Assembly: GCA_964389465.1 (NCBI GenBank)
Contig: CAYMDK010000001.1
Coordinates: 86,852-150,851 of the forward strand
Direction: 5' to 3'
DNA length: 64,000 bases
Source of the DNA: an uncultured archaeon
GTDB taxonomy: Archaea; Thermoplasmatota; Poseidoniia; MGIII; CG-Epi1
Part shown: piece after piece, positions 28,734 through 59,463 of the stretch
Position numbering within the stretch: position 1 is the stretch's first letter
How the letters are laid out: each line of letters begins with the position of its first letter
Program-made: the position numbers and the translations under genes
The notes under the pieces: generated by a model
The model's database searches: none
What the model was told of the DNA's origin: nothing
The model's input: the letters and a program-made list of their open reading frames with translations, nothing else

Positions 28734-28765
28734 AGCAGGAAAGATAAGTCAGAACAGGAGCTGAC

Positions 28766-30334: not shown

Positions 30335-30412
30335 TAAACCCCCTTTTCGTTCCAGACAATACTTACTATTGTTTTTGTAAAACTTAAAAACAACTGTGGC
30401 CTGCGTTGGATA

Positions 30413-31114
30413 ATGACTCTGGAAGGTCTGATAGGCTCCTTGGAGGATTTGAGCGAATTCAATCTAGAAGGTGTCTATGAAGCTGTTTCAAGAACCGCCG
30501 TGGGATTCAAGGACCTTGAGAAATGGATAGATTACGACTATCCCGTCTCTGACTCATATGGTCGGAAAATGGTGCATGATGGTGGTTTTTTCGAAGTGAT
30601 GGTTATGTGCTGGAAACCCGGAGATTATAGTGCTATACACGATCATGGGGAAGCTGAGTTTGGTGTGGTCAAGGTTTTTGGAGATACCGAACACGCCGCA
30701 TTCAAAATAGTGAATCAGAAACTTATCACTCTCGGGCGTACTATCATTGAAGCAGGAACAACGCTGGAAGTGGCTCCAGCATTGATTCATCAAATGGGAA
30801 ATCCGGGAGATAGGAATTTCTTCAGTTTGCACATCTATGTGAATCAGGCCACTGAAGGTGGAATTACGAGAGATTCCAGAATTTATGATTATAGCCGAAA
30901 CGCGATATTACGTGTTGATGGAGGGGCTTTCTATCTCCTGCCAGAAAGCGAGATTAAAGCCAGAGAGCCTCTCCCAGAAGCTGATTCCAGCACCAGGCAA
31001 CGGGACCTGAAGGAAGCCGGAAAGCGCGCGAAAGCTATGAAATGCGGGCCGGAGTACAAACGAATCCTGAATGAGGCGCCTCCAACTCTGGTCGAACCTC
31101 CATTAATCCAGTAA
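30413..31114 (+). CDS. Cupin-fold cysteine dioxygenase type I-like protein
   Basis: Cupin core with HDH metal-binding motif (YSAIHDHGEAEFGVV) and a downstream His (LHIYV). AT-rich codon usage. Confidence 0.6.
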   Translation: MTLEGLIGSLEDLSEFNLEGVYEAVSRTAVGFKDLEKWIDYDYPVSDSYGRKMVHDGGFFEVMVMCWKPGDYSAIHDHGEAEFGVVKVFGDTEHAAFKIVNQKLITLGRTIIEAGTTLEVAPALIHQMGNPGDRNFFSLHIYVNQATEGGITRDSRIYDYSRNAILRVDGGAFYLLPESEIKAREPLPEADSSTRQRDLKEAGKRAKAMKCGPEYKRILNEAPPTLVEPPLIQ

Positions 31115-31116
31115 AG

Positions 31117-31140
31117 TGGCGCCAGGAGAGTGTTCCGAAC
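31117..31140 (+). repeat. Direct repeat of the tRNA-Ser(CGA) 3' end (putative att-site remnant)
   Basis: tggcgccaggagag at 31117-31130 is identical to 31218-31231 (the tRNA 3' end including CCA). Extended similarity covers about 22/27 nt. A hairpin gaacctttt/aaaaggttc follows at 31141-31161. Confidence 0.6.
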
Positions 31141-31217
31141 GAACCTTTTGAGAAAAGGTTCATCAAAATCGTGAGTTCGGAATCACTATCGGAGCGCCAT
31201 GCGCCGTCCACGACGCA

Positions 31218-31303
31218 TGGCGCCAGGAGAGGGATTCGAACCCCCGTGGGGAGACCCCAGTGGTTTTCGAGACCACCGCCCTACCGGACTAGGCGATCCT
31301 GGC
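31218..31303 (-). tRNA. tRNA-Ser (anticodon CGA), class II with long variable arm, CCA encoded
   Basis: Reverse complement: acceptor GCCAGGA/TCCTGGC, 3-bp D stem, anticodon stem GTGGT/ACCAC with loop CTCGAAA, variable arm TGGGGTCTCCCCAC, T-arm GGGGGTTCGAATCCCTC. Confidence 0.8.
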
Positions 31304-31405
31304 GCGCAGGCGCCATTGTGGCGGGATGATAAGCATTAAGCCAGAGGCGGCGGCGGCAATTGACTGCCGCCGCCAACCGTTAATCCCGTCCACCGCTGGC
31401 TGCGC

Positions 31406-31612
31406 GTGATGCGACGCGTGACCGTCGGCGGCGAGGAGCGCGAGGTCGAGCTACCAGAGGGGGCGACCGCAGGCGAGCTGGTCGCGGCGCTGGGGCTGCA
31501 CCCGGACGGCGTGCTGGTGCTCGCCGAGGGGGAGCCGCTGCGGCCGGTGGCGCTCAATTCATCGCTGCCGGAAGGGGACATACGGGTCGTGCTGGTCGCC
31601 TCGGGCGGCTGA
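31406..31612 (+). CDS. ThiS/MoaD-family ubiquitin-like small protein ending in Gly-Gly (SAMP-like sulfur carrier/modifier candidate)
   Basis: 68 aa with a beta-grasp-like sequence and a C-terminal ...VLVASGG directly before the stop. GTG at 31406 or ATG at 31409. Confidence 0.55.
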   Translation: MMRRVTVGGEEREVELPEGATAGELVAALGLHPDGVLVLAEGEPLRPVALNSSLPEGDIRVVLVASGG

Positions 31613-31638
31613 AGGCAAGGATTAAACGCTCGGAAGGG

Positions 31639-33885
31639 GTGCGGGGGCGAATGTCCAGCGAGGAGCAGCTGCCGGAAACCGAATCGCCCGCCCCGGTCGA
31701 CCCCGAGGCGCAGGCGCCGCTGCCGGGGCATGAGCTGGGTGAGCGCCCGATTGCGTGGCGCTCGCGGCAGGAGGAAGTGCTGGTCAAGGTCAGCCGGCGC
31801 GAGAAGGATGAAATTGACTTCGTCATCGACGCATTCTGGATATTCGTCGCGCGTGTCCGCTCCGCCTCGCGGCCGCTGCTGGCGCTGGGGCTGCTGTTAA
31901 TCCTGCTCGGCGTCAGCCTCGCGGGCTGGCCGCAGGCTGCCCTCGGGCAGGACCGCAGCGGCTACTGGTATGTCACCGCAGTCGACCATGGCAGTCTGGC
32001 GCGCTACACCACCGACGGCGACTATCCCGACTTCGCACCCGGCGACACTTTCCTGCTGCAGGGCAACATCGAGTCCATCGAGTATTACGCCCCGCTCGAG
32101 GAGGCGAGCTGGCCGCAGCTGGTCCCGGCTCCGCAGGCGGCCGACGGGACACTGCTGGCGAACGGGTCGCTCGAATCACTCTTCGGCCAGTCCTCGAGTG
32201 CAGCGGCCAACTACTCGAGCGCACGGCTGGTGCGGCAGCAGTATTTCAGCAACCTTTCGGTCAGCGGATTCCTGTTCAACGAGGTCGATTTCGAGGATAT
32301 TGTCTTCGAGAACGTCGTCTTCGAGTCCGGCTTCTTTATCAACTGCGACTTCGAGCGCGTCGCGTTCCATAACGTCACGATTCGCGGTTCAGTGCTCTCA
32401 CACGTCGTGCTCTCTGAAGTCTTGTTACAGAACTCGGTCCTCGAAGAGGCGCGACTGGAGCATACCGCCGTGGACCAGATGGTGGTTCGCAGCACGGTCT
32501 GGGAAAACACCGTCAGTCTCCAGAGCAGCCTGCGCGGAATCAAGTTCGACCACGCGCAGCTGAATAACGGCAGCTTCCAGAAATCGCAGCTGGATGTAGT
32601 GCTGTTCCAGCAGACCCACGTCACCAATTTCACGCTGCTCAACACGCCGGTCACCAACGTCGTCGACGGCGATGACCTCGACTACACCTACATTGTCCTC
32701 CGCGGCACCACGGTCCGCGCGACGGGGAATCTGGAGCAACGGCTGCCGGTTGGCGCCTCAATCTACATGGACGTCACGGTCGTCGCTGAAGGTGGCGGGG
32801 CCGGGTCGGTAGCCAACTCGAGCTGGGTTGCCGGCAACGTGACAGGGGATGGCTTCACGACGCCTTTCGGCGAGCAGCCGGTCAACCTCAGCCGCGAGCT
32901 GCTGGTGGTTGCGCCCGAAGTGGTGCGGCCCACCTTCTGGTGGTCGGTTGGCTTCAACTCGTTCGTGCTGGCGGGCGCGATGCTGCTGGTCTACGCTGTT
33001 GGTGGCCATGCGGTAATCCTGGCGGTTACACGCTTCAGCTCGCCACTGCTCGCCACCATGGGAGGATTCCTGCTGCTTTTCCTTGCTATCCCCACCCGCG
33101 ACTTCCTGCTGGTTTCGCAGCTGATGCTGCTCTATTTCGTCCCACCGCTCGGCAAGGGGACCGTCATCCCGCTCGGGATTGCGGCCGGAATCAATCCGTG
33201 GGTGCTGGCGCTGGCGACCGCCTTCGTTGACATCATGGTCGGAGTTTTCCTGGCGTGGAACTTCGACCTTGCGCGCAAAATTCCCTTCGTCGGCGGCGGT
33301 ATCCGGCGAGTGCAGGCGAAGGGTAGCGAAATCATGGCGGCACAGCCGTGGATTGAGCGGCTGGCGTTCGCCGGCATTCTGCTCTTCGTGATGTTCCCGT
33401 TCCAGGGCTCCGGCTCGGTTGGCGGCACCCTGCTCGGCCGCTCGATGTCGATGACCCCTTACCGCATCCTCTCGGCCGTGGCGATTGGCGGCATCCTCGG
33501 GTCTTTCATAATCTCCGCCTCAATTGTCTTCGGCCTCGGCCTCGTCGGACAGATGGGGGCCTACGGTTTACTGATTGCACTGGTGGTGGCGCTGATTATC
33601 GTCACCCTCTGGTACACCTTCCGCCACTGGGACGAGCTGAGTCTCGACGAGTTCCAGGAAGTACTGGGGCTCCACCGCGAAGGCCTCATCGGCGCCCCGG
33701 TCGGCGCCGCGGCCGACCTGGCGGGCGCGGCGACCCTCGGTGTCTTTCGCGCCGTCGAGGGGACGGGGCAGGCAATCTCGAAGACCACCGCAACTGTGCT
33801 CGATACATTCCTGCCCGAGAGCGAGCGGAAGCAGCCGCCCGCCGACAAAACTAAGGGCGACGACGATGCGGAGGACGAGGAGTGA
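31639..33885 (+). CDS. Membrane protein with extracytoplasmic pentapeptide-repeat region and C-terminal polytopic domain, acidic tail
   Basis: About 25 consecutive pentapeptide-like repeats (FLFNEVDFEDIVFENVVFESGFFINCDFERVAFHNV...), then at least 8 predicted TM helices. C-terminal KTKGDDDAEDEE. Confidence 0.55.
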   Translation: MRGRMSSEEQLPETESPAPVDPEAQAPLPGHELGERPIAWRSRQEEVLVKVSRREKDEIDFVIDAFWIFVARVRSASRPLLALGLLLILLGVSLAGWPQAALGQDRSGYWYVTAVDHGSLARYTTDGDYPDFAPGDTFLLQGNIESIEYYAPLEEASWPQLVPAPQAADGTLLANGSLESLFGQSSSAAANYSSARLVRQQYFSNLSVSGFLFNEVDFEDIVFENVVFESGFFINCDFERVAFHNVTIRGSVLSHVVLSEVLLQNSVLEEARLEHTAVDQMVVRSTVWENTVSLQSSLRGIKFDHAQLNNGSFQKSQLDVVLFQQTHVTNFTLLNTPVTNVVDGDDLDYTYIVLRGTTVRATGNLEQRLPVGASIYMDVTVVAEGGGAGSVANSSWVAGNVTGDGFTTPFGEQPVNLSRELLVVAPEVVRPTFWWSVGFNSFVLAGAMLLVYAVGGHAVILAVTRFSSPLLATMGGFLLLFLAIPTRDFLLVSQLMLLYFVPPLGKGTVIPLGIAAGINPWVLALATAFVDIMVGVFLAWNFDLARKIPFVGGGIRRVQAKGSEIMAAQPWIERLAFAGILLFVMFPFQGSGSVGGTLLGRSMSMTPYRILSAVAIGGILGSFIISASIVFGLGLVGQMGAYGLLIALVVALIIVTLWYTFRHWDELSLDEFQEVLGLHREGLIGAPVGAAADLAGAATLGVFRAVEGTGQAISKTTATVLDTFLPESERKQPPADKTKGDDDAEDEE

Positions 33886-35684: not shown

Positions 35685-38613
35685 CCTCGTCGTCGCCGCC
35701 ACTTCCTCGCATTCTCCTGAGCAAGACAGCGATTCCTCCAACCGCAGCTATTGCAGGTATTGAATAGAACCATGGATTCAAGCCCTCCTCCACTTTTACT
35801 TCAGGAGCTGAGGATACAGAAACCATAACGCCTTGTGACGTTTCACCAGCAGAGACGGTGATGGTATGGTCGCCGCTTGTCGCTATCCAGTCGAATTGCG
35901 AGAAGCCGTCAGCACCTGCAACCAAATCAACCAAGGCCGTTGAGGCTACCTCGCCATCCACACTCCATGTCAGTTCTGCAATTCCATCAAGGCCCCCTGC
36001 GTTACTTACTATCACGAAGAAAGGCACGTTGTCACCCTCACTCAGATCTGGGGGAATAACTTGAATCGAGGCCAGTATCACTGAGAATTCTGGATGCACG
36101 ATAGACACGCTTACATTTCTCCATGTAGTGGCCCGCCCATCACTGGCGCTTATGGCGAGGTAGTAATCACCTTCATCCAATGCACTGGTGTCCCAGAACA
36201 AGCTACCGGATGGTGCCAAACCTGAAGAAATCGTGGTAAAACCCGTGTTCGAGGAATGCCTGAAAAGAATGTCTATTTCGAGGAGATCGCCGTCCGCATC
36301 CGCCACTGACCATTGCACATCCACGCCATCGTCAATAAGGCCGAAGGGAGCTGGTGAATAGATGAAAATTTCAGGGGCGTTGTTCGGTTGTGTATGATTG
36401 ATTTCAAGAGTATAATCACTACAGTCTTCACTCCCCAAATTACCGTCACTGACCGTTCCGCATACAAACCATTCACCGTCACCAATCTGGGAAGTGTCCC
36501 ATTGGTATTCTCCGTTGTTTGCAAGGCCCGTTTCTATGGTAACAGCGTCATCCAGATTCTCCGTCATGGAGTAGTAGAGAAGGCCAATCACCAATTCGTC
36601 ACTATCTGGGTCGGTGGCCTGCCATCGAATTACGTAGCTATCATCGGCGATGTCGCCCTGTGAACTAGGTGTATTGATGGTGATTTCTGGTGAATCGTTG
36701 TGCTCTATCCGGAGGGTCTCAGAAGTATAGTCAATTTTCTCTTGTGAGGTGGAGTCGGTGGCCACGCCCATCAAGTAGTAATCGCCTTCCGCTATTCCAG
36801 AGGTATCCCATTCATATTCTCCCGAATTTTCGAGATTAGCCGCAATCAGTTGCTTCTCATTGGGTTGTGTGTCTGTGTCATAATACAGGTCGATTGCGAC
36901 TTGATCGCCGTCAGGGTCAGAGGCCACCCACGTGATGGAATAGCTTCCATCAGCGATGGCATCCCCCGGCTCTCCCACTTCCATATCTGGTGGATAATTA
37001 GATGGTGAAATAATCGCAAAACTATTGTCACTGATATCGTCAACTGAAGTGCCTAGCTCATCAGTCAACGTTACTTTCAGAAAACTATCAGCAGAATTCT
37101 CGAAAGGCACTTCCCATTGGAAGGTACCTGTATCAGGCAAACCTTCAGCGATGGTTGTCCAATCTCCATCCGGGCCGTCCGTTGAATATTCCAGTTTTAC
37201 GCTACGGGACCCTGTGGTCGACGGAATTTCCGAGAGCCAGTGGATGAACCTGATAGACCCGCCACGGAAGGTTTCCATGCCGTCAGGATAGTCCATGTCC
37301 ACGCCTAGTGACGACACGGCCGTGCTTTCACGCCAGACTTTCACACTACCTGGGTAGCCTGCCTGGTCCGTTCCAAAACCAGCAATGATATCACGGTGTC
37401 CGTTGTGATCGAAATCCCCTACCTCCATGCGGTGCCCCTGTGCATTTCCCTGCAACGTGTTCTGGGACTTTACCCATCCACCGGTTTCGGTTGCAAGATA
37501 GGTTTCAACGATACCACTAGGAGTGAGGCCCACAATATCATCGTACTTATCCTGATTCATATCAGCTAATTTTATTGTCCGATAGGCTTGGTTCGGCAAT
37601 CCTGCAGAATTATCAGTCCAGCCACCCTCTCCGTCCCCAGAGAAGGCGTAGACATGACTATCATCGTAATCGACCGTGCATAGTGCTAGATCCACGAATC
37701 CGTCATTGTTGAAATCTCCCCAGTCGAGCGAGAACGGACTTTCATCTGAACCTGATTCAACTGGCAGGCCTGCGCTGGAGTCTGTCCAGCCTCCGTTTCC
37801 GTCACCAAGGTAGACCCAGACACCGTCACGAAGATTAGCTATAAGATCCAGGAACCCGTCTCGGTTGATATCAACGAAATAGCCCTGCAAAGTGCTGGCT
37901 CTGCCCATGATTATCCCGTCGTCCTGTTGAGTCCAATTACCGTCACCCGAGTTTGCAAAAGGAGTAAGGACCATATCCATCTGACCCCCTATCAAAACAT
38001 CCAGACGCCCGTCAGCATTATAGTCTCCAACATCAATAGACCAGGCGTCCTGACTGTTACAGCCCTCACACTCTTTCTCTACCACGTTCTCGTCCCAATT
38101 TCCTCCAGAGCCTCGATAGAAGGCACTGACGTTATATTTGCCATGGCTACCAGCCACCACATCCATGTTACCGTCATTGTCAACGTCGCCAAAATCAAAT
38201 CCGCCGTAAGAGTGATGGTTAATCACTTCAGTTCCAAACGTGGATGAAACATTCGACCACGTATTACCATCCCATTGCATTACGTGGAGAGAACGGTCCC
38301 CCTGTCCCTTGCGCGGGCCCAAAAAGAAAGCCTCATCAGTCCCATCTTCGTCAATATCATGAAGCCGGACCTTGGAAACCCAGAGACCTTGTGTGGGTAG
38401 ACCATTGCTAACATCATTGTACTCCGGGGTACCTTGTGCTTCAGCATTATGGGGCAGGTAGTAAAGCCCGGAAAATATCATCGATAAAATCAGGAGAAGG
38501 CTGAGAGTGGGAGAGTGATTCTGTGACCATAGAATTCTACCATGGGTGTTTGAAATATTTAAGCCCCGTTGGAAATATCTAGTCCTGTGCACGCGAGTGG
38601 ACGCGGCAAACAC
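35665..38613 (-). CDS. Cell-surface protein: FG-GAP/VCBS beta-propeller repeats + three Ig-like repeat domains + C-terminal TM anchor and acidic tail
   Basis: FG-GAP repeats ([68 protein letters not shown]). Three ~100-aa repeats of the form ([22 protein letters not shown]...GEYEWDTS...GDYYL). C-terminus [37 protein letters not shown]. The exact start is uncertain (38613 or the internal ATG at MIFSG). Confidence 0.7.
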
Positions 38614-46164: not shown

Positions 46165-48000
46165 GTGGGGCGCCCCTTGTTCCCGTTCCCGGAGCTCCGC
46201 AAGGGGCAGGATGCGATGCTGGATGACTGCCGCACGGCGTTCGCTGGCGGCGAGCACCTGCTGGCGCACGCCCCCACCGGGCTCGGGAAGACCGCCGCGG
46301 CGCTGACCGCCGCGGTCGAGGTGGCGCGCGAGCGGGGGCTGCTGGTGGTGGCGCTGACGTCGCGGCAGACACAGCACGCGATTTTCGTCGAGACGCTGAA
46401 GCGCATCCATGCGCAGCAGCCGCTGAAAATCGTGGACGTGATTTCCAAGCAGGACATGTGTCCACGCGACGACCTTGACGAGAGTCGCTACGGCGTCTTC
46501 CAGGCGGTCTGCACCGCTCTGGTGCGCAACAACGACTGTCGCTACCACGCCGGCTACCGTCCCGAATTCCTGCCTCAGGTTTTCGATTCGCCGCTCTCGG
46601 CCGCCGACCTGAAGGCGCTCTGCCGCGAGGAGGTGCAATGCCCGCACCGCGTCGCGATGGAGGCGGCGCAGGAATGCGATGTGCTGGTGTGCGACTACAA
46701 TTACCTCTTCACCCCGTGGTCCGAAGTGATGTGGGAGCGCATCCAGCGGCCGCTGGAGGAGGTGCTGCTCATCGTGGACGAGGCGCACAACCTGCCCGAC
46801 CGCATCCGGCTCTCCGCATCGCCGACGCTCTCGCTACAGCGGCTTCGCGAGGCGCAGCGCGAGGCGGGCCGCGCGCTGCGCCCGCAGCTCTCAATCCTGG
46901 AGCGGCTGGTCGCGAGCCTGACCGGCCACGAGGGCGAGAAGGAGATTGACGGCGGCAGCGTGACGCGCATGCTCGACGCGGCGCTCAAGCAAAAGCTGAC
47001 CGACCTGGAGGGCTTCGTCAAGTTGCTCGAGCGGTCGGCCCAGCGGCGGCTGCAGCGCGGCAAGGTGGCACGCATGGGTGACGTGGCGGATTTCCTGCAC
47101 CACTGGCGCTTCCTGAAGGAGGGCAGCGACCTGCGACTGGCACACGGCGGCGACAAGCCGTGGCAGCGCAAGCTTTCGCTGCGGCTGCTCGACCCCGCCT
47201 CAATCAGCGCACCGGTCTTCCGCGCCGTGCGCGGCTCGGTGCTGATGTCGGGCACGCTGAAGCCGCGCGGATTCTACCGCGACCTGCTCGGGCTCGACGA
47301 GGAACGCTCCCGCAAGGCGACCTACAGCTCACCCTTCCCCCCCGAGAACCGACTGCTGCTCTGCGTCGACGACGTCTCGACACTCTATCGCAACCGCGGC
47401 GACCCACTCTACCGCAAGCTGGCGGCGTCGCTGACCGCCGTAGCACAGGCGACGCCGGGCAACGTCGCAGCATTCTTCCCGAGCTACGCGCTGCGCGACG
47501 ACGTCGCCAGCCGGCTCGGCGACCATGGCAAAACGCTGCTGCTCGAGGAGCGCGGTGCATCCCCGGCAAAGCGGACGGCGCTGCTCGGCCGACTACAGCA
47601 GCGCAACGCGCTGCTGCTGGCGGTGATGGGGGGCATTTTCGGCGAGGGGGTCGACTACCCCGATAACCTGCTCGCCGCGGTCGCTGTCATCGGGATACCG
47701 GTGCCGCCGCCGTCGCTCGAGCAGAAGAAGCTGGAAGAGTATTTCGAGCGAAAATTCGGCGACGGAAAGGGGCGTCTCTACGCACAGACCTACCCGGCGG
47801 TCAACCGCGTGCTGCAGGCGGCCGGCCGTTGCATCCGCAGCGAAACCGACCGCGGCGTGGTGCTGCTTTACGACAACCGGCTGGGGCACCGCCCCTACCG
47901 CCGCTTCCTCCCGAAAGAAGTGCGGCACTGCACCAGCAGCGCGGTGCCGGCGCTGGTGCGCGGGTTCAACGCCCCCAGAACGGGGAATCCGCCTTCTTGA
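46165..48000 (+). CDS. xpd: ATP-dependent 5'-3' DNA helicase, XPD/Rad3 (DinG) family with FeS-cluster domain
   Basis: Walker A AHAPTGLGKT, DEAH box LIVDEAHNL, four Cys between them (C..C..C..C FeS domain), and C-terminal helicase motifs (GIFGEGVDY). Confidence 0.8.
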   Translation: MGRPLFPFPELRKGQDAMLDDCRTAFAGGEHLLAHAPTGLGKTAAALTAAVEVARERGLLVVALTSRQTQHAIFVETLKRIHAQQPLKIVDVISKQDMCPRDDLDESRYGVFQAVCTALVRNNDCRYHAGYRPEFLPQVFDSPLSAADLKALCREEVQCPHRVAMEAAQECDVLVCDYNYLFTPWSEVMWERIQRPLEEVLLIVDEAHNLPDRIRLSASPTLSLQRLREAQREAGRALRPQLSILERLVASLTGHEGEKEIDGGSVTRMLDAALKQKLTDLEGFVKLLERSAQRRLQRGKVARMGDVADFLHHWRFLKEGSDLRLAHGGDKPWQRKLSLRLLDPASISAPVFRAVRGSVLMSGTLKPRGFYRDLLGLDEERSRKATYSSPFPPENRLLLCVDDVSTLYRNRGDPLYRKLAASLTAVAQATPGNVAAFFPSYALRDDVASRLGDHGKTLLLEERGASPAKRTALLGRLQQRNALLLAVMGGIFGEGVDYPDNLLAAVAVIGIPVPPPSLEQKKLEEYFERKFGDGKGRLYAQTYPAVNRVLQAAGRCIRSETDRGVVLLYDNRLGHRPYRRFLPKEVRHCTSSAVPALVRGFNAPRTGNPPS

Positions 48001-49816: not shown

Positions 49817-50059
49817 TCACCGCATTACGGAAAAGCGGCTCATAATCCTGAGCAGCCGCTCGCTCATGTCGGGGGTGATGATGCCTTCCCCGGTTTTCTC
49901 TTCCAGCAGGTCGGCCGCGGCGCCCAGCGTTTCGCGCGTCGCCAGCGCTACCAGCGTGGCGATGAACGGCTCAACCTCTTTCTCGCCAAGGTCCGATTCC
50001 TGTAGCACCTCGTCCAGGAAGTAAATCGTCTCGGTCCGGCGTGCGGGATTGAGCATGCG
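49817..50059 (-). CDS. Small hypothetical protein (~80 aa) between the SSB-zinc-knuckle gene and infB
   Basis: In-frame ATG (MLNPARRTETIYFLDEV...) within track ORF 49817..50470. The upstream part of that ORF is an out-of-frame read of the zinc-knuckle repeats. Confidence 0.35.
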   Translation of the reverse strand, partial: RMLNPARRTETIYFLDEVLQESDLGEKEVEPFIATLVALATRETLGAAADLLEEKTGEGIITPDMSERLLRIMSRFSVMR

Positions 50060-50156: not shown

Positions 50157-50759
50157 TCAGTTCCCCCGGTCGGGGCAGTTGCGGGAGATGTGGCCCGGCT
50201 TGCCACAATTGAAACACTTGCCGCCGCCCGGCTTCCCGCCGCCACCTTCAGGGCAGTCGCGCGAAATGTGGCCCGGCTTGCCACAGTTGAAACATTTGCC
50301 GCCGCCCGGCTTCCCACCGCCGCCTTCAGGGCAGTCGCGCGAAATGTGGCCCGGCTTGCCACAGTTGAAACATTTACCGCCACCACCGCCGCCCCGACCA
50401 CCGCCGCGTCCGCGGTCCGGCCGCGGCATCGCGTACGCGAGGTCGGAGAGGTTGAGGTCATCACGGACACTCCCCACTTCCCGGCCGGGCTTGCCCAGCG
50501 AGCCGAACTTGCCGAGGCTTAGGCGGAGCGAACCGCGCACCAGCGTGGCGCGCGCATCCTTGAGCCAGATGGTCGCATCGACCGCCACCTGGTCACATTC
50601 CTCGTTCCAGAAACTCATCACAATCGTGCCGGTTTCGTCGCCTACCAGTCCCTCGCAAACACGCCCGCCGCTCTCGATATCGCGGGGCTCGTCCATCGAC
50701 AGCACCTTGACTGCCATACTGATGCGACTGCTGCGCGGGGTCAACTCGTCTACCCTCAT
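50157..50759 (-). CDS. SSB-like single OB-fold protein fused to Gly-rich linker, RGG box and three CCHC zinc knuckles
   Basis: The OB fold is similar to crenarchaeal SSB / RPA OB (..VGDETGTIVMSFW...GSLRLSL). Linker GRGGGRGGGGGG. Three copies of CFNCGKPGHISRDC (C-x2-C-x4-H-x4-C). The ATG at 50759 has TATA ttatatgg 22-29 nt upstream; the track GTG at 50810 would cover that promoter. Confidence 0.65.
   Translation of the reverse strand: MRVDELTPRSSRISMAVKVLSMDEPRDIESGGRVCEGLVGDETGTIVMSFWNEECDQVAVDATIWLKDARATLVRGSLRLSLGKFGSLGKPGREVGSVRDDLNLSDLAYAMPRPDRGRGGGRGGGGGGKCFNCGKPGHISRDCPEGGGGKPGGGKCFNCGKPGHISRDCPEGGGGKPGGGKCFNCGKPGHISRNCPDRGN
50174..50407. repeat. Tandem direct repeat, 3 x 78 bp, near-identical (codes the zinc-knuckle units)
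   Basis: Units begin at 50174, 50252 and 50330 (ggcagt[tc]gcg[cg]ga[ag]atgtggcccggcttgccaca[ag]ttgaaaca[ct]tt[gt]ccgcc...). Units 2 and 3 differ by only a few nt. Confidence 0.8.
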
Positions 50760-50778
50760 CGGCTGCGCCGAGACTGGC

Positions 50779-50791
50779 CTCCATATAACGG
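50779..50791 (-). promoter_or_regulatory. TATA box for the SSB-zinc-knuckle gene (leaderless)
   Basis: Reverse complement ccgTTATATGGag, 22-29 nt upstream of ATG 50759. Confidence 0.35.
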
Positions 50792-50931
50792 TTGAGATGC
50801 ACCCATTCACCCATAAAGTATAATAACCAAAAAGGGTAAATCACATAATCACCATTAAGTTTATAACCCCTAGTGGGGTGTGTAGTCTGTCCCGGGGTGG
50901 AGTCCTGGGGTGAAACAAAAGGAGAAACTCC

Positions 50932-52266
50932 ATGCAAGCAAACGAAACCGACTTTGGGCCGCATGTCAAGGACATTGCAGAGGCCCTGGAAAACAAACTG
51001 GACGAAGCCACGATTGTCGAAGAACTGAGGCAATACGTGGAGAACTACGGCATCGACCTGGCAACCGCCAAGGAGGCGATTGTCCGGAAGCACTACGGCG
51101 ACCCCCGCACGTTGCAAGCCAGCGCATTCATGCCGCTGGCTGACATCAAAGCGGACGAGTCATCGGTCAGCTTCCGCGCGAAAATCGTGTCTGTGTTCTC
51201 GAAGGAAATCAACCTGAAAGATGGCTCGCAGAAGACCATTTTCGAGGGGCAAATCGCCGACGGGAGCGCTACCCTGCGCTTCACAGTCTGGCGTGACGAG
51301 TTCACGGCCGAGCCGGGGACTATCCTCGAGGTCATTAACGCCTATTCCAAAGGCTGGAAAGATCGCGTCGACCTGAACCTGGGCGACCGCTGCCGGGTGC
51401 GGGAGGTCGAGGACGAGACGCTGGCGGCGCTGGATGTGCCGACGGCCGACAGCCCGACCGCCGGCTCCGCGAGCGACGTTGCTGGACTACGGAACGGCAT
51501 GGGCTCAGTCGCGCTGACCGTGCGCATCCTGGATGTGCAGGAGCGCGAGGTGACCGTGCGCGGCGAGCCAAAGACGCTCTGGAGCGGGACGCTGGCAGAC
51601 GCCAGCGGTAGCTGCCGTTTCACTGCCTGGCACGACCACAAACTACAGGCAGATACCATCTACGAAATCGGTAACGCCTACGTGCGCGAGTGGCAGGGCA
51701 TCCCCGAGCTGCAAATCAACGAAAACACCGCAGTGGGCACGGTTGACGCCGAACTCCCGTCGCTGGAAGAACTGGCGGTGGGGACCAGCTACACTATCGG
51801 CCTGCTCGACGAGCGCGGCGGCGCTAGCGACGCGCTCCTGGAGGGACACGTGCTAGCAGTGCGCGAGGGCAGCGGACTGATTTTCCGCTGCCCCGAGTGC
51901 AACCGCGTGCTCCGCAGCCGGCAGTGCATGGTGCACGGCGAGCAGGAGGGACAGCCCGACCTGCGGACCAAGCTGCTCTTCGACGACGGCACCGGTTCGC
52001 TACAGCTATTCCTGAACCGCGAGCTGACCGAGAAGGTGCTGGGGCGCGACCTCGATTCGTGCCTCGAGCTGGTGCGCGAGAACTACTCGGCCGAGGCGCT
52101 GACCGAAGAGCTGGAGCAGGCACTCCTGCTCAAGCCACTGATAGTGGAGGGGTACACCCGCTCCGACGACTACGGCCTGATGTTCTTCGCGCGCAAGTGC
52201 CAGCCGGCACACAACCTTGACGTGCCCTCTGTCGCCAGGCAATTCCTGGCGGCACTGGAGGCCTGA
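50932..52266 (+). CDS. rpa: Replication protein A large subunit (RPA41-like: two OB folds + C-terminal zinc finger)
   Basis: Two OB-fold ssDNA-binding domains and C4 zinc finger (CPECNRVLRSRQCMVHGE). SD-like aaggag 8 nt upstream of the ATG. TATA about 65 nt upstream. Confidence 0.8.
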   Translation: MQANETDFGPHVKDIAEALENKLDEATIVEELRQYVENYGIDLATAKEAIVRKHYGDPRTLQASAFMPLADIKADESSVSFRAKIVSVFSKEINLKDGSQKTIFEGQIADGSATLRFTVWRDEFTAEPGTILEVINAYSKGWKDRVDLNLGDRCRVREVEDETLAALDVPTADSPTAGSASDVAGLRNGMGSVALTVRILDVQEREVTVRGEPKTLWSGTLADASGSCRFTAWHDHKLQADTIYEIGNAYVREWQGIPELQINENTAVGTVDAELPSLEELAVGTSYTIGLLDERGGASDALLEGHVLAVREGSGLIFRCPECNRVLRSRQCMVHGEQEGQPDLRTKLLFDDGTGSLQLFLNRELTEKVLGRDLDSCLELVRENYSAEALTEELEQALLLKPLIVEGYTRSDDYGLMFFARKCQPAHNLDVPSVARQFLAALEA

Positions 52267-53223
52267 ATGGCGCGTCGCAGGGAACCGGCCCTTCCGGTAC
52301 TGGCGCAGGAGCTTTCGCGCGCCCACGAGACGCATGTCGAGGACCGCGAATATTCGCCCACCTATCTTATTTCGGAGATGGGGTCCAAACTCTCGCGCGT
52401 GCTCATCGGCGGCATCCTGACCGACGTCGAAAACCGTGGCAGCGAGGCGGACCCGTTCTACATGGCGCGCATGGTTGACCCTCACGGCGACACCTACTAC
52501 CTGCGCGCCGGGCAGTACAATCCCGAAGGCGCCGCGGCACTCTCGAAAATCGAGACGCCCACACACGTAATCTCCGTCGGGAGGGTGCGTGCCTACTCAC
52601 CCGACGACAGCGACTCAGTCTACGTCAGCGTCCAGCCCGAGAACGTGCGCGCGGTCAGCGAGCAGGAGGTTTCGGTCTGGGCGGTCAAGGCGTGCGAATC
52701 GTTGATGCGCCGCCTGAAGGGCGACGATGCCGAGCTGAGCAACCGCGAAAAGGAAGGGCTCGGCCTGGCGCAGGAAAAATACGAGACTGTCTCGACTGAA
52801 TCCTACGCCGGGCTGCTCTACGACTGCCTGCGGAACCTCAGCGGCGATACGACTGCGCCGAGCACGGCGCAGTTCACCGGCGAGTTCGAGACTGCCAGCG
52901 ACGTGGAAGTGGCCGCGACGGAGCTGGAAGCGGCTCCGTCGGCAGCGGAACCGCCCGCACCCGAAGCGCCGCAGGACGCCCCCGCAGGCGACGAAACGCC
53001 TGACGGGGAGCCGGAAGACGATGCGGACGCCGAGGCGGCCGTGCTCGAACTCATAAGCTCGCTCGACAAGGAAGGCGACGGAGAAGGCGTAATCTACGAA
53101 ACGCTGCGCGATTCCGCAGCGGCGGCCGGCATCGACGGCTCGCGCCTCGACGAGGTCATCGACTCGCTCAACGACCAGGGGCTGACCTACCAGCCGGCGT
53201 TCAACAAGTTCCGGGTGGCATGA
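52267..53223 (+). CDS. RPA32-like / RPA-associated protein: OB fold + acidic linker + C-terminal winged-helix domain
   Basis: Starts 1 nt after the rpa stop. Central OB-like region, Ala/Glu/Pro-rich linker, and a C-terminal helix-rich ~60 aa (VLELISSLDKEGDGEGVIYETLRDSAAAAGIDGSRLDEVIDSLNDQGLTYQ) resembling the RPA32 C-terminal wH domain. Confidence 0.55.
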   Translation: MARRREPALPVLAQELSRAHETHVEDREYSPTYLISEMGSKLSRVLIGGILTDVENRGSEADPFYMARMVDPHGDTYYLRAGQYNPEGAAALSKIETPTHVISVGRVRAYSPDDSDSVYVSVQPENVRAVSEQEVSVWAVKACESLMRRLKGDDAELSNREKEGLGLAQEKYETVSTESYAGLLYDCLRNLSGDTTAPSTAQFTGEFETASDVEVAATELEAAPSAAEPPAPEAPQDAPAGDETPDGEPEDDADAEAAVLELISSLDKEGDGEGVIYETLRDSAAAAGIDGSRLDEVIDSLNDQGLTYQPAFNKFRVA

Positions 53224-53345
53224 TGCCGAGCAAGTCTGTACGCGAGTTCCTCGAGGCTATCGCTCCTCGCTGGGAAGACCCACATGAATTTGACTGGCTG
53301 CGGGAAGTCGAGCTACCGCTGGTAACCATTCCCCGGAGGCGCTGA
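53220..53345 (+). CDS. 41-aa micro-ORF translationally coupled between RPA32-like gene and radA
   Basis: ATGATG overlaps the upstream TGA (ATGA). The ORF's own TGA overlaps the radA ATG (TGATG). Protein [41 protein letters not shown]. Not in the ORF track (<60 aa). Confidence 0.3.
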
Positions 53346-54292
53346 TGGGCAAGAAGGAAGAATCCATCGAGGACCTGCCCGGCGTCGGCCCCGCCATCGC
53401 CGAGAAACTGCGCGAGGGGGGCTACCGCACGCTTGAGTCAATCGCGACCGAGTCGCCTTCGCGGCTCTCGGATGCGGCCGGTATCGGCGACTCGAGCTGC
53501 GCCAGCATCATCGCCGCGGCGCGCAAGCTGGCCGACATCGGCGGCTTCCTGACCGGCGCAGAGCTGCTCGAGAGGCGCAGCACCGTCGGCAAGGTTACCA
53601 CCTGCTCGAGCGAGCTGGATTCGCTGATGGGCGGCGGCATCGAGACGCAAGCAATTTCCGAGTTCTACGGCCAGTATGGCTCGGGCAAAACCCAGATTGT
53701 CCACCAACTGGCGGTGACTGTGCAACTGCCAGAGGAACAGGGCGGCCTTGACGCGGAGGCGGTAATTATCGACACCGAGAATACCTTCCGCCCCGAGCGC
53801 ATAGTCTCAATGGCGAAAGCGCTCAACCTGGACCCCGACGAGGCGCTGGCGCGCATCCACGTCGGCCGCGCCTACAACTCGCACCAGCAGATGCTGATGG
53901 TCGAGAAAGCGCAGCAACTGGCCGAGGAACGTCCCATCCGGATGCTGGTCGTCGATTCGCTGACCGGAGCGTTCCGGTCGGAGTATATTGGCCGGGGCGT
54001 GCTCGCCGAACGGCAGGGAAAAATCAACAGTCACATGGAGTCGCTGGGGCGCTTTGCAGACTTGCACAACGCCGTAGTGGCTGTTACCAACCAGGTGCAT
54101 TCCAAACCAGATGCCTTCTTCGGCGACCCGACCAAGCCGATTGGCGGCCACATTGTTGGCCACACCTCGAAATTCCGGGTCTACATCCGGCGTGGCAAGG
54201 CGGGCAAGCGTATCTTCCGGCTCGTTGACTCGCCACACCTGCCCGACGGGGAAGCTGTAGTGCAGATCCTGGAAGAGGGTATCCGCGACTAG
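53345..54292 (+). CDS. radA: DNA repair and recombination protein RadA
   Basis: N-terminal HhH domain ([17 protein letters not shown]) and RecA core with Walker [10 protein letters not shown] and Walker B LVVDSL. 315 aa. Confidence 0.9.
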
Positions 54293-54663
54293 CGGCCCAG
54301 ACCGCGTAGCACTTTCAGCCCGAACCAGTTGCGCTTCGCCAACTCCCAGATTCCGGCGCGGTCGCGGTCGAGTGTCGCCTGCTCCAGCGAACCATCGCCC
54401 GCCATGAAGCATTCGATTGAGCAATAGCCCCGGCTGGCGCCGTTGTCGACCGCGTGCGCGACACCGTCCGGGACCAAATCGGTCATCGCGTTGCCGACCT
54501 TGAAAGCCCAGTTGAAGCGCTCGCCGCAGCCGCGACAGGTGCGCTCCTCCACGTTGCCCACCGTTGATTCACTGTAGCGCGAGCCTTCGCCGACCGCTTC
54601 CTTGTCATAGATATAGTGCGTCTCGTCTGCGGGCGGGTAGTGCAGGTCAGAACTCGTCGTCAT
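54289..54663 (-). CDS. Hypothetical zinc-ribbon protein (~125 aa)
   Basis: CRGCGERF...CSIEC Cys pairs. Start taken at MMTTSS, overlapping the upstream gene's stop by about 17 nt. The longer track start lies inside the upstream gene. Confidence 0.4.
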
Positions 54664-56143
54664 CATCCCACTCCATGTCGTCGCCCCGTGAGGAGCGGCG
54701 CAGCGCCACCACCACGCCAAGGATGACCAGCACGGCAACACCACCGATACCGAGGGTTGTCGTGTCGAGGTCCTGCAAGCCTTCGAACCAAGTGCCCGAG
54801 ACGAGTCCGCTATCCTCGTCCGCGACGGTCAGTGAATACTCTACCATGTTATTATCCTCGTCGGTTTCGAGGGCGTGGTTGTCCTCATCAAGTATGATGT
54901 GGAGGGTGTAACTGCCCGGACTGTCGAACGCCAGTGCGAAACTGACTACACTGCTCTCCCCGGGTGTGACAAAGGTGAAAGTGTCGTGCGCCAGCACGAG
55001 CGGGCCGTTGTTGTGGCTGTAGTAAACCACGACCGGTACCGGGTTGTATCCTATCGCAGGGTCGCCCGCAGCACGGATGGTGATGGCGACTGCGAACTGC
55101 TTGCCAGTAACGACTGTGGTCGAATTTGTCGCGCCATTGATTGAGACATCCTCCCAGCCAACATAGTTGTCAATATCACTCTGATGGACGACCAGGTAGA
55201 GCCGCTCATCGCCACTACTCTCCCACTCGTTATCCTGAATGTCGCCGCAACTCACCGTCAGATAGTAGGTATCGCTGGGCGCCTCGTCCTCATTGTAGGC
55301 CCACTCCCACTTCACCAGCAGCGACTCGTCATTCGAGTCCTCGAGCGTACCCTCCGGCACAGTGACGTGCGTACCCGAACTGGTGCCGCGCACCTCGAGT
55401 CCCCACGCTTCGAGCTGCAAATCCTCGCTACCGAAGGCAGAGAGCAGTCGTGCTTCGACCTCGACTACCTCGCGCGCGTGGTCCACCTCGATGCGCGGGA
55501 ATTCGGCGCGGAAATGGTCCAGCTCGAGCGCGATGCCGGCCGAGTGGTTCTGGCTCGAGGTCAGTATGACTATCTGGTCGCTCGAGCCCCCAATTGGTTG
55601 CCAGTCGTCACCACCCGAATACTCGAGGTCGACCCGGATGGTCTGGTCGCGGTCAATCTGGTACTCAGCATCGAGCGAGAAGCTGGTCGAGAAGTGCGAG
55701 GCGTTGTCGTTGACGGTGCGGGTCTCGGTTTCGCTCTGCAGGAATCCAGCGCCCGGTACTACTAACGTCGCACGGAACTGGACGTCCTTGACCGAGCCGG
55801 AAGTCGCCATGGCCCATATTTCGAAGGGGACCGTGCCGCGCGCGGTGGCGTTGGTGTTGAAGGCGGGGCTAAACCAGCTGCCGACATTCTCCCAGTTGCG
55901 GTTGCCAGTCACACCGAGTCGGTTTCCGCCCTGCGGGCAGTCACTCTCTGTGTCGCTGTCGCTCGTCGGCGCAGTGGTGTTGAAGTTGCCGCTGCCGCCG
56001 TCAAGGTCGCCATAGAAATAGAGGCCCAGTTCGTGGAACTGGCCGCTGCCGTAGTCCGGCTCGGCGGTGCCCACGCCGCCGTAAGGCGAGAAGAGCGACA
56101 GCAGGAACAGCAGGGCGACTGCGCAGGCCACATGCGCACGCAT
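54647..56143 (-). CDS. Secreted cell-surface protein with C-terminal TM anchor and acidic tail
   Basis: N-terminal signal peptide, beta-rich Ser/Thr/Asp-rich ectodomain. C-terminus ...[49 protein letters not shown]. Confidence 0.55.
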   Translation of the reverse strand: MRAHVACAVALLFLLSLFSPYGGVGTAEPDYGSGQFHELGLYFYGDLDGGSGNFNTTAPTSDSDTESDCPQGGNRLGVTGNRNWENVGSWFSPAFNTNATARGTVPFEIWAMATSGSVKDVQFRATLVVPGAGFLQSETETRTVNDNASHFSTSFSLDAEYQIDRDQTIRVDLEYSGGDDWQPIGGSSDQIVILTSSQNHSAGIALELDHFRAEFPRIEVDHAREVVEVEARLLSAFGSEDLQLEAWGLEVRGTSSGTHVTVPEGTLEDSNDESLLVKWEWAYNEDEAPSDTYYLTVSCGDIQDNEWESSGDERLYLVVHQSDIDNYVGWEDVSINGATNSTTVVTGKQFAVAITIRAAGDPAIGYNPVPVVVYYSHNNGPLVLAHDTFTFVTPGESSVVSFALAFDSPGSYTLHIILDEDNHALETDEDNNMVEYSLTVADEDSGLVSGTWFEGLQDLDTTTLGIGGVAVLVILGVVVALRRSSRGDDMEWDDDDEF

Positions 56144-58380: not shown

Positions 58381-59463
58381 TCAGATACCAGCTTCAGCCA
58401 ACTTCTCCGGCAAGTATGTGTCGGTCACGAAGTCAAGGCCATACTTGGCCAGCGCCTGCTGCTCAGCCTTGAGTCCCAGTTCCAGTTGGAGTTCTATCTC
58501 CGAGCTCCAGTAGTCATTGAGAAAACGGGGGTCGCTACGCATTGACTTCAGGGCCTGCCGGTCGCGCTCGGTGAGCTCGTCGTGCGGGAGCTCGTAATTC
58601 GAGATATCTGACGGCGTCACCCCCAAGTAGCGCGCTGTGGGGGTCGCGAGCAAGTGTGAAATGTGGGCTGTCTTGATGGCACCATATGCAATCGAGCCGT
58701 AAATGCGGTACGACCAGGGGTCGGCATCGGTAAAGATCAGGAGCGGCAAGCTTGTCTCATCACTGAGCCGTTGCAGGAATCTGCGTGTCGAGCGAGCTGG
58801 CTGTCCCTTGATGTGGACCAGGATTGCACCGTGGCTTTCGTCGAAGCCGTTCTCAACCAGCCGGTCGAACATTCCTCCCGTCTCGATGGCGATTATGCAG
58901 CGCGCGTTACCCACGTTGTTGAAAGTAATCTTCTCTGGTTCAACATTGTAGGGAATCGCGTAGCCGGTATCCCCGACATCGTCGCGGCAGTTTATGCGCA
59001 TCGGCTTGCCCTTGCGGTTAATCTCAGTCAATGTCAGGTCGCCCAGTACCTTGGCTCCATCCTCCTCGGGCCGGATCTTGAAATCCTCCCGCTGGAAATG
59101 GGTCACGATTTCGAGGTCCTCAATGAGTTTATTGGATTCGTCCTGGGTATGGAACTTGCCCAGGTCCCAGCCCTCGGAAATGTAGTAGAGCTCCCTCAGT
59201 GTCGATGATTTTTGCTGGCCAACCATGTCGCGAATGAAGTCGAGTAAATAGGTCGTGCGCAGGAGCATGTACGCCCCATCTAATTTCTTGGCCGTGCGGG
59301 TCGTCCTCGATTTCCCGTACTTCCAGACCTGCTGCTGCTGGTCGAAGATTATGTTATTCTTGCTGCGGGTGGGAAGGGTCATCTCCGGGATGTTTCCCTG
59401 GTTAAGCTGCTTGTGAATCTGGCCGGCAATCTGTTCCAGTTGCCCGATCGCGGATTGTGGCAT
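58381..59463 (-). CDS. top6A: DNA topoisomerase VI subunit A (Top6A, Spo11 homolog)
   Basis: Spo11/TopoVI-A CAP domain with catalytic Tyr region (LRELYYISEG) and toprim domain (DxD: IFTDADPWSYRI). 360 aa. Confidence 0.9.
   Translation of the reverse strand: MPQSAIGQLEQIAGQIHKQLNQGNIPEMTLPTRSKNNIIFDQQQQVWKYGKSRTTRTAKKLDGAYMLLRTTYLLDFIRDMVGQQKSSTLRELYYISEGWDLGKFHTQDESNKLIEDLEIVTHFQREDFKIRPEEDGAKVLGDLTLTEINRKGKPMRINCRDDVGDTGYAIPYNVEPEKITFNNVGNARCIIAIETGGMFDRLVENGFDESHGAILVHIKGQPARSTRRFLQRLSDETSLPLLIFTDADPWSYRIYGSIAYGAIKTAHISHLLATPTARYLGVTPSDISNYELPHDELTERDRQALKSMRSDPRFLNDYWSSEIELQLELGLKAEQQALAKYGLDFVTDTYLPEKLAEAGI

Follow-up and report, generated by a model that had tools for sequence, protein, structure and literature searches.

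A Small Protein Gene That Keeps Company with radA in a Putative RPA-RadA Operon of Marine Group III Archaea

Within positions 50932-54292 of the 64,000-nt stretch of archaeal DNA analyzed here (the window), four plus-strand genes follow one another head to tail: they encode an Rpa1-like protein, an Rpa2/RPA32-like protein, a microprotein of 41 residues, and the recombinase RadA. The reading we favor, at a probability of about 0.72, is that the four form one operon whose coupled translation would yield a heteromeric RPA, the microprotein, and RadA in linked amounts; within it, a role of the microprotein as an accessory factor is proposed more tentatively. The micro-ORF is a real gene maintained by purifying selection, and abutting radA, on one side or the other, is its only fixed property among relatives. 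The original prediction was right that this frame exists but passed over it as a detail; it is the unexpected result here and the most interesting component of the cluster.

The RPA Subunits and RadA

The first gene (50932..52266, + strand; 444 aa) encodes an N-terminal helical region, two OB folds, and a C-terminal OB fold with a CPEC...C..H zinc finger (motif CPECNRVLRSRQCMVH in the translation); tandem OB folds ending in a zinc-finger, DBD-C-like OB identify the product as Rpa1-like (RPA41/RPA70 type). Its match to NCBIfam PRK07218 (2.3e-97, aa 7-443) falls under the equivalog cut-off, so that the protein is a relative of PRK07218 rather than that equivalog. Among PDB entries, aa 71-178 match an SSB-type OB (4e-6) and aa 220-395 match P. 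abyssi Rpa1 (8aaj_A; 2e-4). Residues 1-70, which look helical from sequence, gave no match to AROD (DUF2240) in Pfam even at E 10.

The second gene (ORF2; 52267..53223, + strand; 318 aa) is of the RPAP, COG3390 type. It encodes, in order, an OB fold (nt 52396-52653), helices, an acidic/proline linker, and a winged helix (wH; nt 53020-53217); this architecture, with a single N-terminal OB, and the position directly downstream of a zinc-finger Rpa1-like gene mark the product as Rpa2/RPA32-like. In the AF2 model, OB strands span aa 44-129 (pLDDT 67-83) and are followed by helices at aa 132-151, 159-171, and 177-191; the wH consists of helices at aa 252-270, 277-286, and 291-303 and strands at aa 306-309 and 314-317 (pLDDT ~80). 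The best Foldseek matches are OB folds, joined by two long alignments to chains of RPA- and CST-containing complexes. A profile of the family (A3) matches P. abyssi RPA32 (8oej_B) with E 2.9e-15 across OB and wH: profile positions 1-155 correspond to RPA32 residues 1-142, the OB part, and positions 223-310 to wH residues 183-268; the profile also matches the MCM wH 2m45. In Pfam, significant matches to MCM_WH_arc and RPA_C were obtained for 13 and 8, respectively, of 36 family members; those of the window's own protein are weak. The JGI name is “RPA family protein.” In the PDB, P. abyssi RPA32 is entered under the title [quoted passage not shown]

An OB fold followed by an RPA32-like winged helix is what the original prediction had read into this gene, with fold prediction of 52267-53223 as the proposed check; model, Foldseek, and profile now agree on it. 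Its further suggestion of a euryarchaeal heteromeric RPA fits the family assignments of both products, which would be expected to form a complex. For an Rpa2-like protein, a stable complex with the Rpa1 partner and ssDNA binding have been demonstrated in H. volcanii and Pyrococcus alone (PMC3376784, PMC10122647).

The last gene of the cluster (53345..54292, + strand; 315 aa) encodes a canonical, full-length RadA, with an HhH N-terminal domain, the FLTG polymerization motif, and a RecA-type ATPase core. It scores far into the NCBIfam models NF003301 (2.4e-143; 477 bits, cut-off 259) and TIGR02236 (8.6e-142; 472 bits, cut-off 361), matches Pfam Rad51 (9e-81) and HHH_5, and aligns over aa 6-315 with P. 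furiosus RadA (1pzn; E 2e-120).

A Microprotein Gene That Tracks radA

The microprotein gene (53220..53345, + strand; alternative start at 53223) encodes a predicted helix at residues 5-14, which is amphipathic, a loop (PRWEDPHEF), and a second helix at residues 25-30 (AF2 pLDDT ~80 for aa 1-30). The homologues P0121-P0131 are 34-58 aa long, and the family as a whole, at 34-60 aa, retains the core FLxxLxPxWEDPxEFDW; conservation is strongest in the acidic/aromatic loop rather than in the helix. The comparison covered 13 metagenome/MAG places and 38 species-level genomes: the microprotein HMM matches in 47 of these 51 loci, among them every complete one, and the remaining four are truncated or have no radA. 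Across the whole window, the micro-ORF is the single significant match. Gene callers often overlook the gene, which is uncalled in several loci (e.g., L001 and L003); in L001, the radA start has probably been mis-set across it.

What could this protein be? Neither Pfam nor NCBIfam contains a match, and no homologue was detected outside the clade; the role proposed below is read from gene context. Several likenesses were considered and dropped: (i) DSS1/Sem1, where hhalign returned a probability of 0.45% over 2 aligned columns; (ii) BRC/FxxA mimicry, for which the window's peptide offers FLEA, with the F+3 position taken by A, S, T, D, N, E, or K over 37 variants, and BRC4 itself (hhalign probability 0.2%); (iii) a PIP-box in EFDWL, where the register Qxx[LIM]xx[FW][FWL] is not matched on inspection; (iv) mimicry of the RadA polymerization motif, which reads FLTG throughout, with ILTG in one sub-clade, where the peptide F[LIMV] varies, with no co-variation; and (v) an eIF4E “IEPKWEDP” likeness from the PDB search, a chance match of 10 residues (E 0.2). 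A viral source was rejected too: the motif has 0 matches in IMG/VR, and the window carries cellular genes, among them aIF5B (homology with annotated relatives), Topo VI A, and a class II tRNA synthetase. The literature searched yielded nothing relevant on a small protein linked to RadA or on this operon in MGIII.

Except in L046, the order rpa-ORF2-radA recurs in all fetched loci whose length suffices to reveal it, and the arrangement is conserved in about 100 loci, which answers the original prediction's call for a synteny check in related archaea. In the high-GC clade, the microprotein gene lies between ORF2 and radA, upstream of the latter; in the low-GC clade, which comprises the majority of lineages, it lies downstream of radA, overlapping it by 8 nt, with nothing but a convergent gene after it. 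The host of the window is an uncultured, high-GC Poseidoniia archaeon of the Marine Group III type. A motif-seeded metagenome scan gave 58 matches, 57 of them at 29-48 nt from radA and one at a contig edge; none of the 58 lies in a context other than beside radA.

Could the microprotein instead be a structural subunit of RPA, a minimal stand-in for the missing Rpa3/RPA14, contributing a helix to the trimerization bundle and having nothing RadA-specific about it? It is encoded in an RPA operon that has no third gene for a small single-OB subunit (Rpa3/RPA14; an unlinked copy may exist elsewhere in the genome), the post-OB helices of ORF2 resemble the P. abyssi trimerization helix and Rpa3-contacting helix-turn-helix (PMC10122647), and its own N-terminal helix is amphipathic. 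With 41 residues and two short helices it is too small for an OB fold, and the divergent OB gene described below is of the SSB type. Several observations make a structural role unlikely: a helix of 10 residues is short for trimerization, and conservation peaks in the loop; among the related loci, the gene is never found beside rpa1 or inside the rpa1-rpa2 pair, and radA separates it from both rpa genes in most lineages; and the four rpa1-rpa2 loci without radA (L046 and L110-L112, the last three being from other Thermoplasmata with the same tandem) give no microprotein HMM match either.

One Transcript or Several?

The junctions, read directly from the sequence, are tight. Between rpa1-like and ORF2, TGAATG (context gccTGAATGgcg) leaves a spacer of 0 nt; ORF2 and the micro-ORF share ATGA (gcATGAtg; overlap 4 nt), and the micro-ORF and radA share TGATG (cgcTGATGg; overlap 1 nt). 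The four co-directional ORFs had been reported with spacings of 1, -4, and -1; the coordinates are exactly those claimed, the “1” being the start minus the previous end, i.e., a 0-nt spacer. Tight junctions are repeated in all related loci measured, with stop/start overlaps at every junction over ~100 loci: 0 or -1 nt between rpa and ORF2, 0 to 2 nt between ORF2 and radA, -8 nt between radA and the microprotein gene, -1 or -4 nt between ORF2 and the microprotein gene, and -1 or -8 nt between the latter and radA.

Promoters and terminators were sought with a plain search for TATA hexamers and T runs, chosen because the organism is archaeal, rather than with a sigma-70 model. Over the scanned interval (50700-54500), TATA-like hexamers occur solely upstream of the rpa start: TTTATAA (50860..50866, + strand), a candidate TATA box of the operon in an AT-rich divergent intergenic region of 121 nt (50811-50931), and ATATAA at 50783, which falls within the divergent gene. 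This simple motif scan found neither a TATA-like hexamer nor a T5 run inside 50932-54292, a result with which co-transcription of the four genes would fit. The divergent gene (50157..50810, - strand) encodes an SSB-type OB protein (Pfam Ssb-like_OB, 1.8e-12) with an RGG stretch and three CCHC zinc knuckles (zf-CCHC, 3 stretches, 2.4e-26). Nearly all related loci that extend far enough carry it upstream on the other strand, and it belongs to the neighborhood of the operon; we do not claim it as a member.

The cluster might still be a conserved adjacency rather than a single operon, with radA, alone or with the micro-ORF, transcribed from a promoter inside ORF2. In archaea, such promoters can be weak and easily missed when a sequence is inspected, and radA alleles appear to have been swapped independently of rpa (in L007, rpa is at 96% and RadA at 84%; in L010, RadA is at 97%). 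Against this, besides the empty motif scan and the overlaps just described, the low-GC clade leaves a mere 0-2 nt between ORF2 and radA, and of the Shine-Dalgarno-like GGAG/GGAGG sequences that lie 5-7 nt 5' of the rpa, ORF2, and radA starts, the strong GGAGG is typical of internal operon genes; a separate radA promoter is, in our view, quite improbable.

Peptide, Leader, or Spacer?

In the window, the micro-ORF immediately precedes radA: its stop codon runs into the radA start, and the radA Shine-Dalgarno sequence falls within its final codons (CCC CGG AGG CGC TGA). Does it merely set radA translation, as a cis-acting leader or arrest peptide or a translated spacer whose free product does nothing? 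Known arrest peptides are short and have invariant W/D/P residues, and by analogy the micro-ORF could be seen as one of them. Yet in the low-GC majority the gene keeps the same core downstream of radA, where it is unable to control radA translation, which leaves such a role very improbable. Structured RNA in the ORF2-radA spacer was considered as well and rejected, since the region matches no Rfam family and its conservation is of the coding type.

Seen in one genome, the micro-ORF could be a random open frame in a GC-rich intergenic spacer: from base composition, a 41-codon frame in 121 nt at 62% GC has a probability of roughly 0.3, which is not significant. Comparative data, from which the significance comes, effectively refute this reading and leave it a negligible probability: the peptide is conserved over 37 distinct core DNA sequences with entropy greatest at the third codon position, pN/pS is 0.31 in frame vs. 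0.84 and 1.53 in shifted frames, and the core is kept over a 25-point GC shift (from about 0.37 to 0.63; locus GC from 0.35-0.47 to 0.56-0.64) and after the move to the other side of radA.

A Model for Linked RPA and RadA Supply

In the single-operon model that we favor, transcription would most likely start in the AT-rich stretch that precedes rpa, and coupled termination-reinitiation at the overlapping junctions would translate the message into linked amounts of the Rpa1-like and Rpa2/RPA32-like subunits, the microprotein, and RadA. To a standard euryarchaeal Rpa1-Rpa2 module, this clade has joined radA and the microprotein gene, so that RPA, which coats ssDNA, and the recombinase that has to take its place there would be made together. 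P. furiosus RPA is said to stimulate strand exchange by RadA, a result credited to Komori and Ishino in 2001.

Where would the microprotein act? Its gene has been found in two of four possible positions, both beside radA, which lends weak statistical support to RadA over RPA as its partner. Tentatively, and at somewhat less than even odds, we propose, as its most likely role, that of an accessory factor assisting either RadA or the hand-off from RPA to RadA. The invariant acidic/aromatic patch of this small helix-loop-helix, WEDPxEFDW, would bind a basic DNA-binding surface of RadA or an RPA OB fold and modulate filament loading. A bolder version, possible though on balance doubtful, has a free peptide made stoichiometrically with RadA, whose DNA-mimicking acidic/aromatic patch would, by binding RadA or an RPA OB fold, control the replacement of RPA by RadA on ssDNA, making it a previously unrecognized archaeal mediator/regulator.

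Related Systems and Significance

To our knowledge, the RPA gene cluster of Thermococcales does not include radA. As in that system (P. furiosus RPA41/32/14; P. abyssi 8aaj, 8oej; PMC10122647, PMC11686378), subunit genes are clustered here, ORF1 resembling Rpa1 and ORF2 resembling RPA32; unlike there, the cluster has no Rpa3/RPA14-type OB gene, and ORF1 has an extra OB fold. The rpa1-rpa2 tandem is itself the textbook euryarchaeal arrangement (PMC2643942, PMC3376784, PMC8329085): in H. volcanii rpa1-rpap1 and rpa3-rpap3, and in F. acidarmanus RPA1 with its neighbor, a zinc-finger Rpa1-like gene is likewise followed directly by a gene for a single-OB protein with a C-terminal wH. In contrast to these pairs, the overlapping string here also takes in radA and a microprotein gene, and it has no counterpart of the rpe phosphoesterase gene of the H. 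volcanii rpa1 operon.

Linkage of RPA genes to radA had struck the original prediction as not usual. Unusual it is, but not unprecedented: radA at the same locus as RPA has been noted in Methanobacteriales, M. hungatei, and M. kandleri (PMC2643942, Additional file 3). There, too, recombinase and RPA genes lie together in the genome, an association suggestive of a functional link. That account (PMC2643942) says only that the genes share a locus and reports neither stop/start coupling nor a small ORF nor an Rpa2-like partner. The linkage seen here varies a known arrangement in one lineage and is not new in kind.

The eukaryotic DSS1 and BRC repeats of BRCA2, and the acidic tails of bacterial and phage SSBs, are small acidic/aromatic modulators of recombinase loading. 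By analogy, the microprotein may be compared with them in size class (~35-70 aa or a short tail), in its acidic and aromatic residues, and in its link to a recombinase and an ssDNA-binding protein; it is without sequence relationship to DSS1 and BRC4 (hhalign probability <=0.5%), and its FxxA position is variable. Archaea have neither BRCA2 nor Rad52, and the mediators proposed for them are confined to RadA paralogues, RadB among them (PMC5480776).

Little is understood of how RadA reaches RPA-coated ssDNA in archaea, and this clade appears to hard-wire the expression of RPA and RadA together. A strongly conserved small protein that tracks radA through rearrangement and is absent from the family libraries searched is a concrete candidate factor, and one that is cheap to test: a peptide of 34-41 residues can be synthesized, and three recombinant proteins complete the set. 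If the bolder proposal above is true, the microprotein would act as a functional counterpart of DSS1/BRC-type modules in archaea, a domain for which no BRCA2/Rad52-like mediator is known.

A probable rpa-radA operon

The original prediction placed four + strand genes, rpa (ORF1, 50932-52266), an RPA32-like gene (ORF2, 52267-53223), a micro-ORF of 41 codons (53220-53345) and radA (ORF4, 53345-54292), on one coupled transcript; the ORF listing and the junctions bear out these coordinates and the tight spacing. Read from the window sequence, rpa and ORF2 are separated by a 0-nt spacer (gccTGAATGgcg), ORF2 and the micro-ORF overlap by 4 nt (gcATGAtg), and the micro-ORF and radA by 1 nt (cgcTGATGg). 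Shine-Dalgarno (SD) motifs (GGAG/GGAGG) precede the rpa, ORF2 and radA starts. A search of 50700-54500 places every TATA-like hexamer 5′ of rpa: one (TTTATAA, 50860) lies ~70 nt before the start codon in an AT-rich divergent intergenic region, the other (ATATAA, 50783) within the divergent SSB gene. The coding strand has no T5 run within 50932-54292, and an Rfam scan of the operon region found no family. The junctions, the SD motifs, the TATA placement, the missing T5 runs and the empty Rfam scan are consistent with an inferred single transcript and coupled translation.

ORF1 (444 aa) encodes a zinc-finger RPA that is Rpa1-like: PRK07218 aligns over its full length (2.3e-97, below the equivalog cut-off), and its PDB matches include P. 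abyssi Rpa1 (8aaj_A) as well as SSB-type OB folds. ORF4 is a canonical RadA: its scores exceed the cut-offs of both NF003301 and TIGR02236, and P. furiosus RadA (1pzn) aligns at E 2e-120. ORF2 itself matches no Pfam or NCBIfam family; its homologues number in the hundreds (JGI name “RPA family protein”), with 794 representatives at E ≤ 1e-3 in an exhaustive profile search. Foldseek returns OB folds and long alignments to chains of complexes containing RPA and CST (9mj5_B, 7uy7_B). A profile built from 36 diverse family members matches P. abyssi RPA32 (E 2.9e-15) over the OB (1-155) and winged-helix (223-310) regions, and family members also match Pfam MCM_WH_arc and RPA_C. The RPA32-like reading of ORF2 stands because both domains are recovered.

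How unusual is this arrangement? Tandem RPA41/Rpa1-like and COG3390/Rpa2-like genes are established in most Euryarchaeota, Thermoplasmatales included, and in H. volcanii the encoded proteins assemble into a complex (PMC2643942; PMC3376784; PMC8329085). Berthon et al. list radA at the RPA locus in Methanobacteriales, M. hungatei and M. kandleri (PMC2643942, Additional file 3). Among the loci compared here (13 places from a protein look-up and 38 species-level genomes), the rpa-ORF2-radA order is kept in all those of sufficient length except L046, in which an ORF2 45% identical is followed by a convergent XPD-like helicase; the spacing is nearly invariant (rpa|ORF2 0 or -1; ORF2|radA 0 to 2). 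In three further Thermoplasmata lineages the rpa1-rpa2 pair is retained but no radA follows downstream, so the linkage is specific to this clade (Ca. Poseidoniia by homolog names, mostly labelled Marine Group III) among the Thermoplasmata loci compared. Since both the tandem and the shared radA locus are already published, the RPA pair is nothing new, and the linkage to radA, originally thought unusual, amounts to a variant specific to this clade that has precedents in other lineages. The first observation is confirmed and its interpretation essentially right.

Neighboring genes and radA alleles

DNA-metabolism genes are plentiful around the operon: an XPD-type helicase (DEAD_2/HBB/Helicase_C_2; 46165-48000, +) lies upstream and topoisomerase VI subunit A (58381-59463, -) downstream. 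In L046, the XPD-like gene occupies the slot directly 3′ of the rpa pair expected for radA. The divergent SSB-type OB protein (50157-50810, -), kept beside the operon in related loci, ends in a GRGGG stretch and three copies of a CCHC zinc knuckle (CFNCGKPGHISRDCP), a type that is probably uncommon in archaea; its relatives carry 0, 1-2 or 3 knuckles and vary in size (L003, 155 aa, OB only; L011, 180 aa; L007, 200 aa). Between aIF5B and the SSB gene lies a 79-aa ORF (49817-50056, -) with no Pfam family, called at exactly this length in almost all related loci and concealed in the window within a 217-aa GTG ORF overlapping the SSB gene. A convergent Cys-rich ORF (54289-54744, -; 151 aa, 122-135 aa in relatives; motif CRGCGERF...CSIEC) shares 4 nt with the end of radA or, in low-GC relatives, with that of the micro-ORF instead; it matches no Pfam or NCBIfam family. 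Two segments, 28001-32000 and 36001-38000, have a GC of 0.50-0.55 (window average 0.62), one of them holding a tRNA (31221-31303); these could be islands, or genes of a different composition.

Some members of the high-GC clade (L001, L007, L014-L020 and L055; compared over the stretch matching aa 60-86 of the window RadA) carry Ile in place of the Phe of the RadA polymerisation motif (GGILTGAELL). Identities to the window are mosaic: 96% for Rpa1, 91% for ORF2 and only 84% for RadA in L007, and 97% for RadA and 83% for ORF2 in L010. This mosaicism suggests that lineages have exchanged radA alleles, the breakpoint lying near the micro-ORF.

A radA-associated microprotein

A 41-codon frame could arise by chance in one GC-rich genome, but comparative sequence data exclude this. 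The ORF is kept in close relatives (8 synonymous and 1 non-synonymous changes against L007), and among called proteins a profile search recovers homologs of 34-58 aa that share the core [EK]F[LIMV]xx[LI]xPxWEDPxEF[DE]W[LI]. On six-frame translations, the core HMM matches 47/51 loci, the other four being truncated or L046; it matches the whole window exactly once. Across 37 distinct core DNA sequences, entropy per codon position is 17.8, 9.9 and 28.2, and pN/pS is 0.31 in frame versus 0.84 and 1.53 in shifted frames, with the true constraint stronger because pS is near saturation. The peptide persists even though locus GC ranges from 0.35-0.47 to 0.56-0.64. A metagenome scan seeded by the back-translated motif alone gave 58 matches, 57 lying 29-48 nt from radA and one at a contig edge, with none in any other gene context; IMG/VR gave no match. 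Gene callers frequently overlook the micro-ORF (e.g., L001-L004). In L001, radA is called from an upstream in-frame ATG (6024-7004, 326 aa), crossing the micro-ORF in a different frame; an ATG 8 nt ahead of the micro-ORF stop yields a RadA of normal length.

ORF2 and radA flank the micro-ORF in the high-GC clade, to which the window belongs (overlaps: ORF2|micro-ORF -1 or -4; micro-ORF|radA -1 or -8). In low-GC loci the micro-ORF is 3′ of radA, with an 8-nt overlap between its ATG and the radA stop throughout; it has thus moved across radA, presumably remaining translationally coupled. In the window clade, its tail codons also serve as the radA SD; a purely cis-regulatory leader peptide is nonetheless argued against by the flip, which puts the gene 3′ of radA in low-GC loci. 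A role as a plain RPA subunit is disfavored: the micro-ORF stays next to radA after the flip, and the core HMM finds no match in four rpa1-rpa2 loci without radA. The same observations favor a functional link with radA or with RPA and RadA as a unit.

AF2 predicts helices at residues 5-14 and 25-30 flanking a loop with PRWEDPHEF (pLDDT ~80), then a disordered basic tail; F10, L11, P16, W18, E19, D20, P21, E23, F24 and W26 are invariant. Searches against families, PDB and profiles found no similarity, and explicit tests rejected kinship to DSS1 and to BRC4. Longer microproteins (53-65 aa; L021, L028, L029, L031, L032, L040, L043, L045 and L047; homolog P0128) have an additional conserved motif in the C-terminal part, ..(F/L)ELNRFPGLK(M/I).., or, in another group, the end ..IPSLGKKIRYSPSNRTNY; the 34-41 aa forms have neither, and the ancestral microprotein may have been longer than these. 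The peptide does not co-vary with the RadA polymerisation motif. By analogy, the acidic/aromatic patch could dock on the basic DNA-binding surface of RadA or on an RPA OB fold, and the docked microprotein would then modulate RPA-to-RadA exchange. What is new in this operon is a microprotein family that is conserved, largely missing from annotations and, within this archaeal clade, found in strict association with radA.
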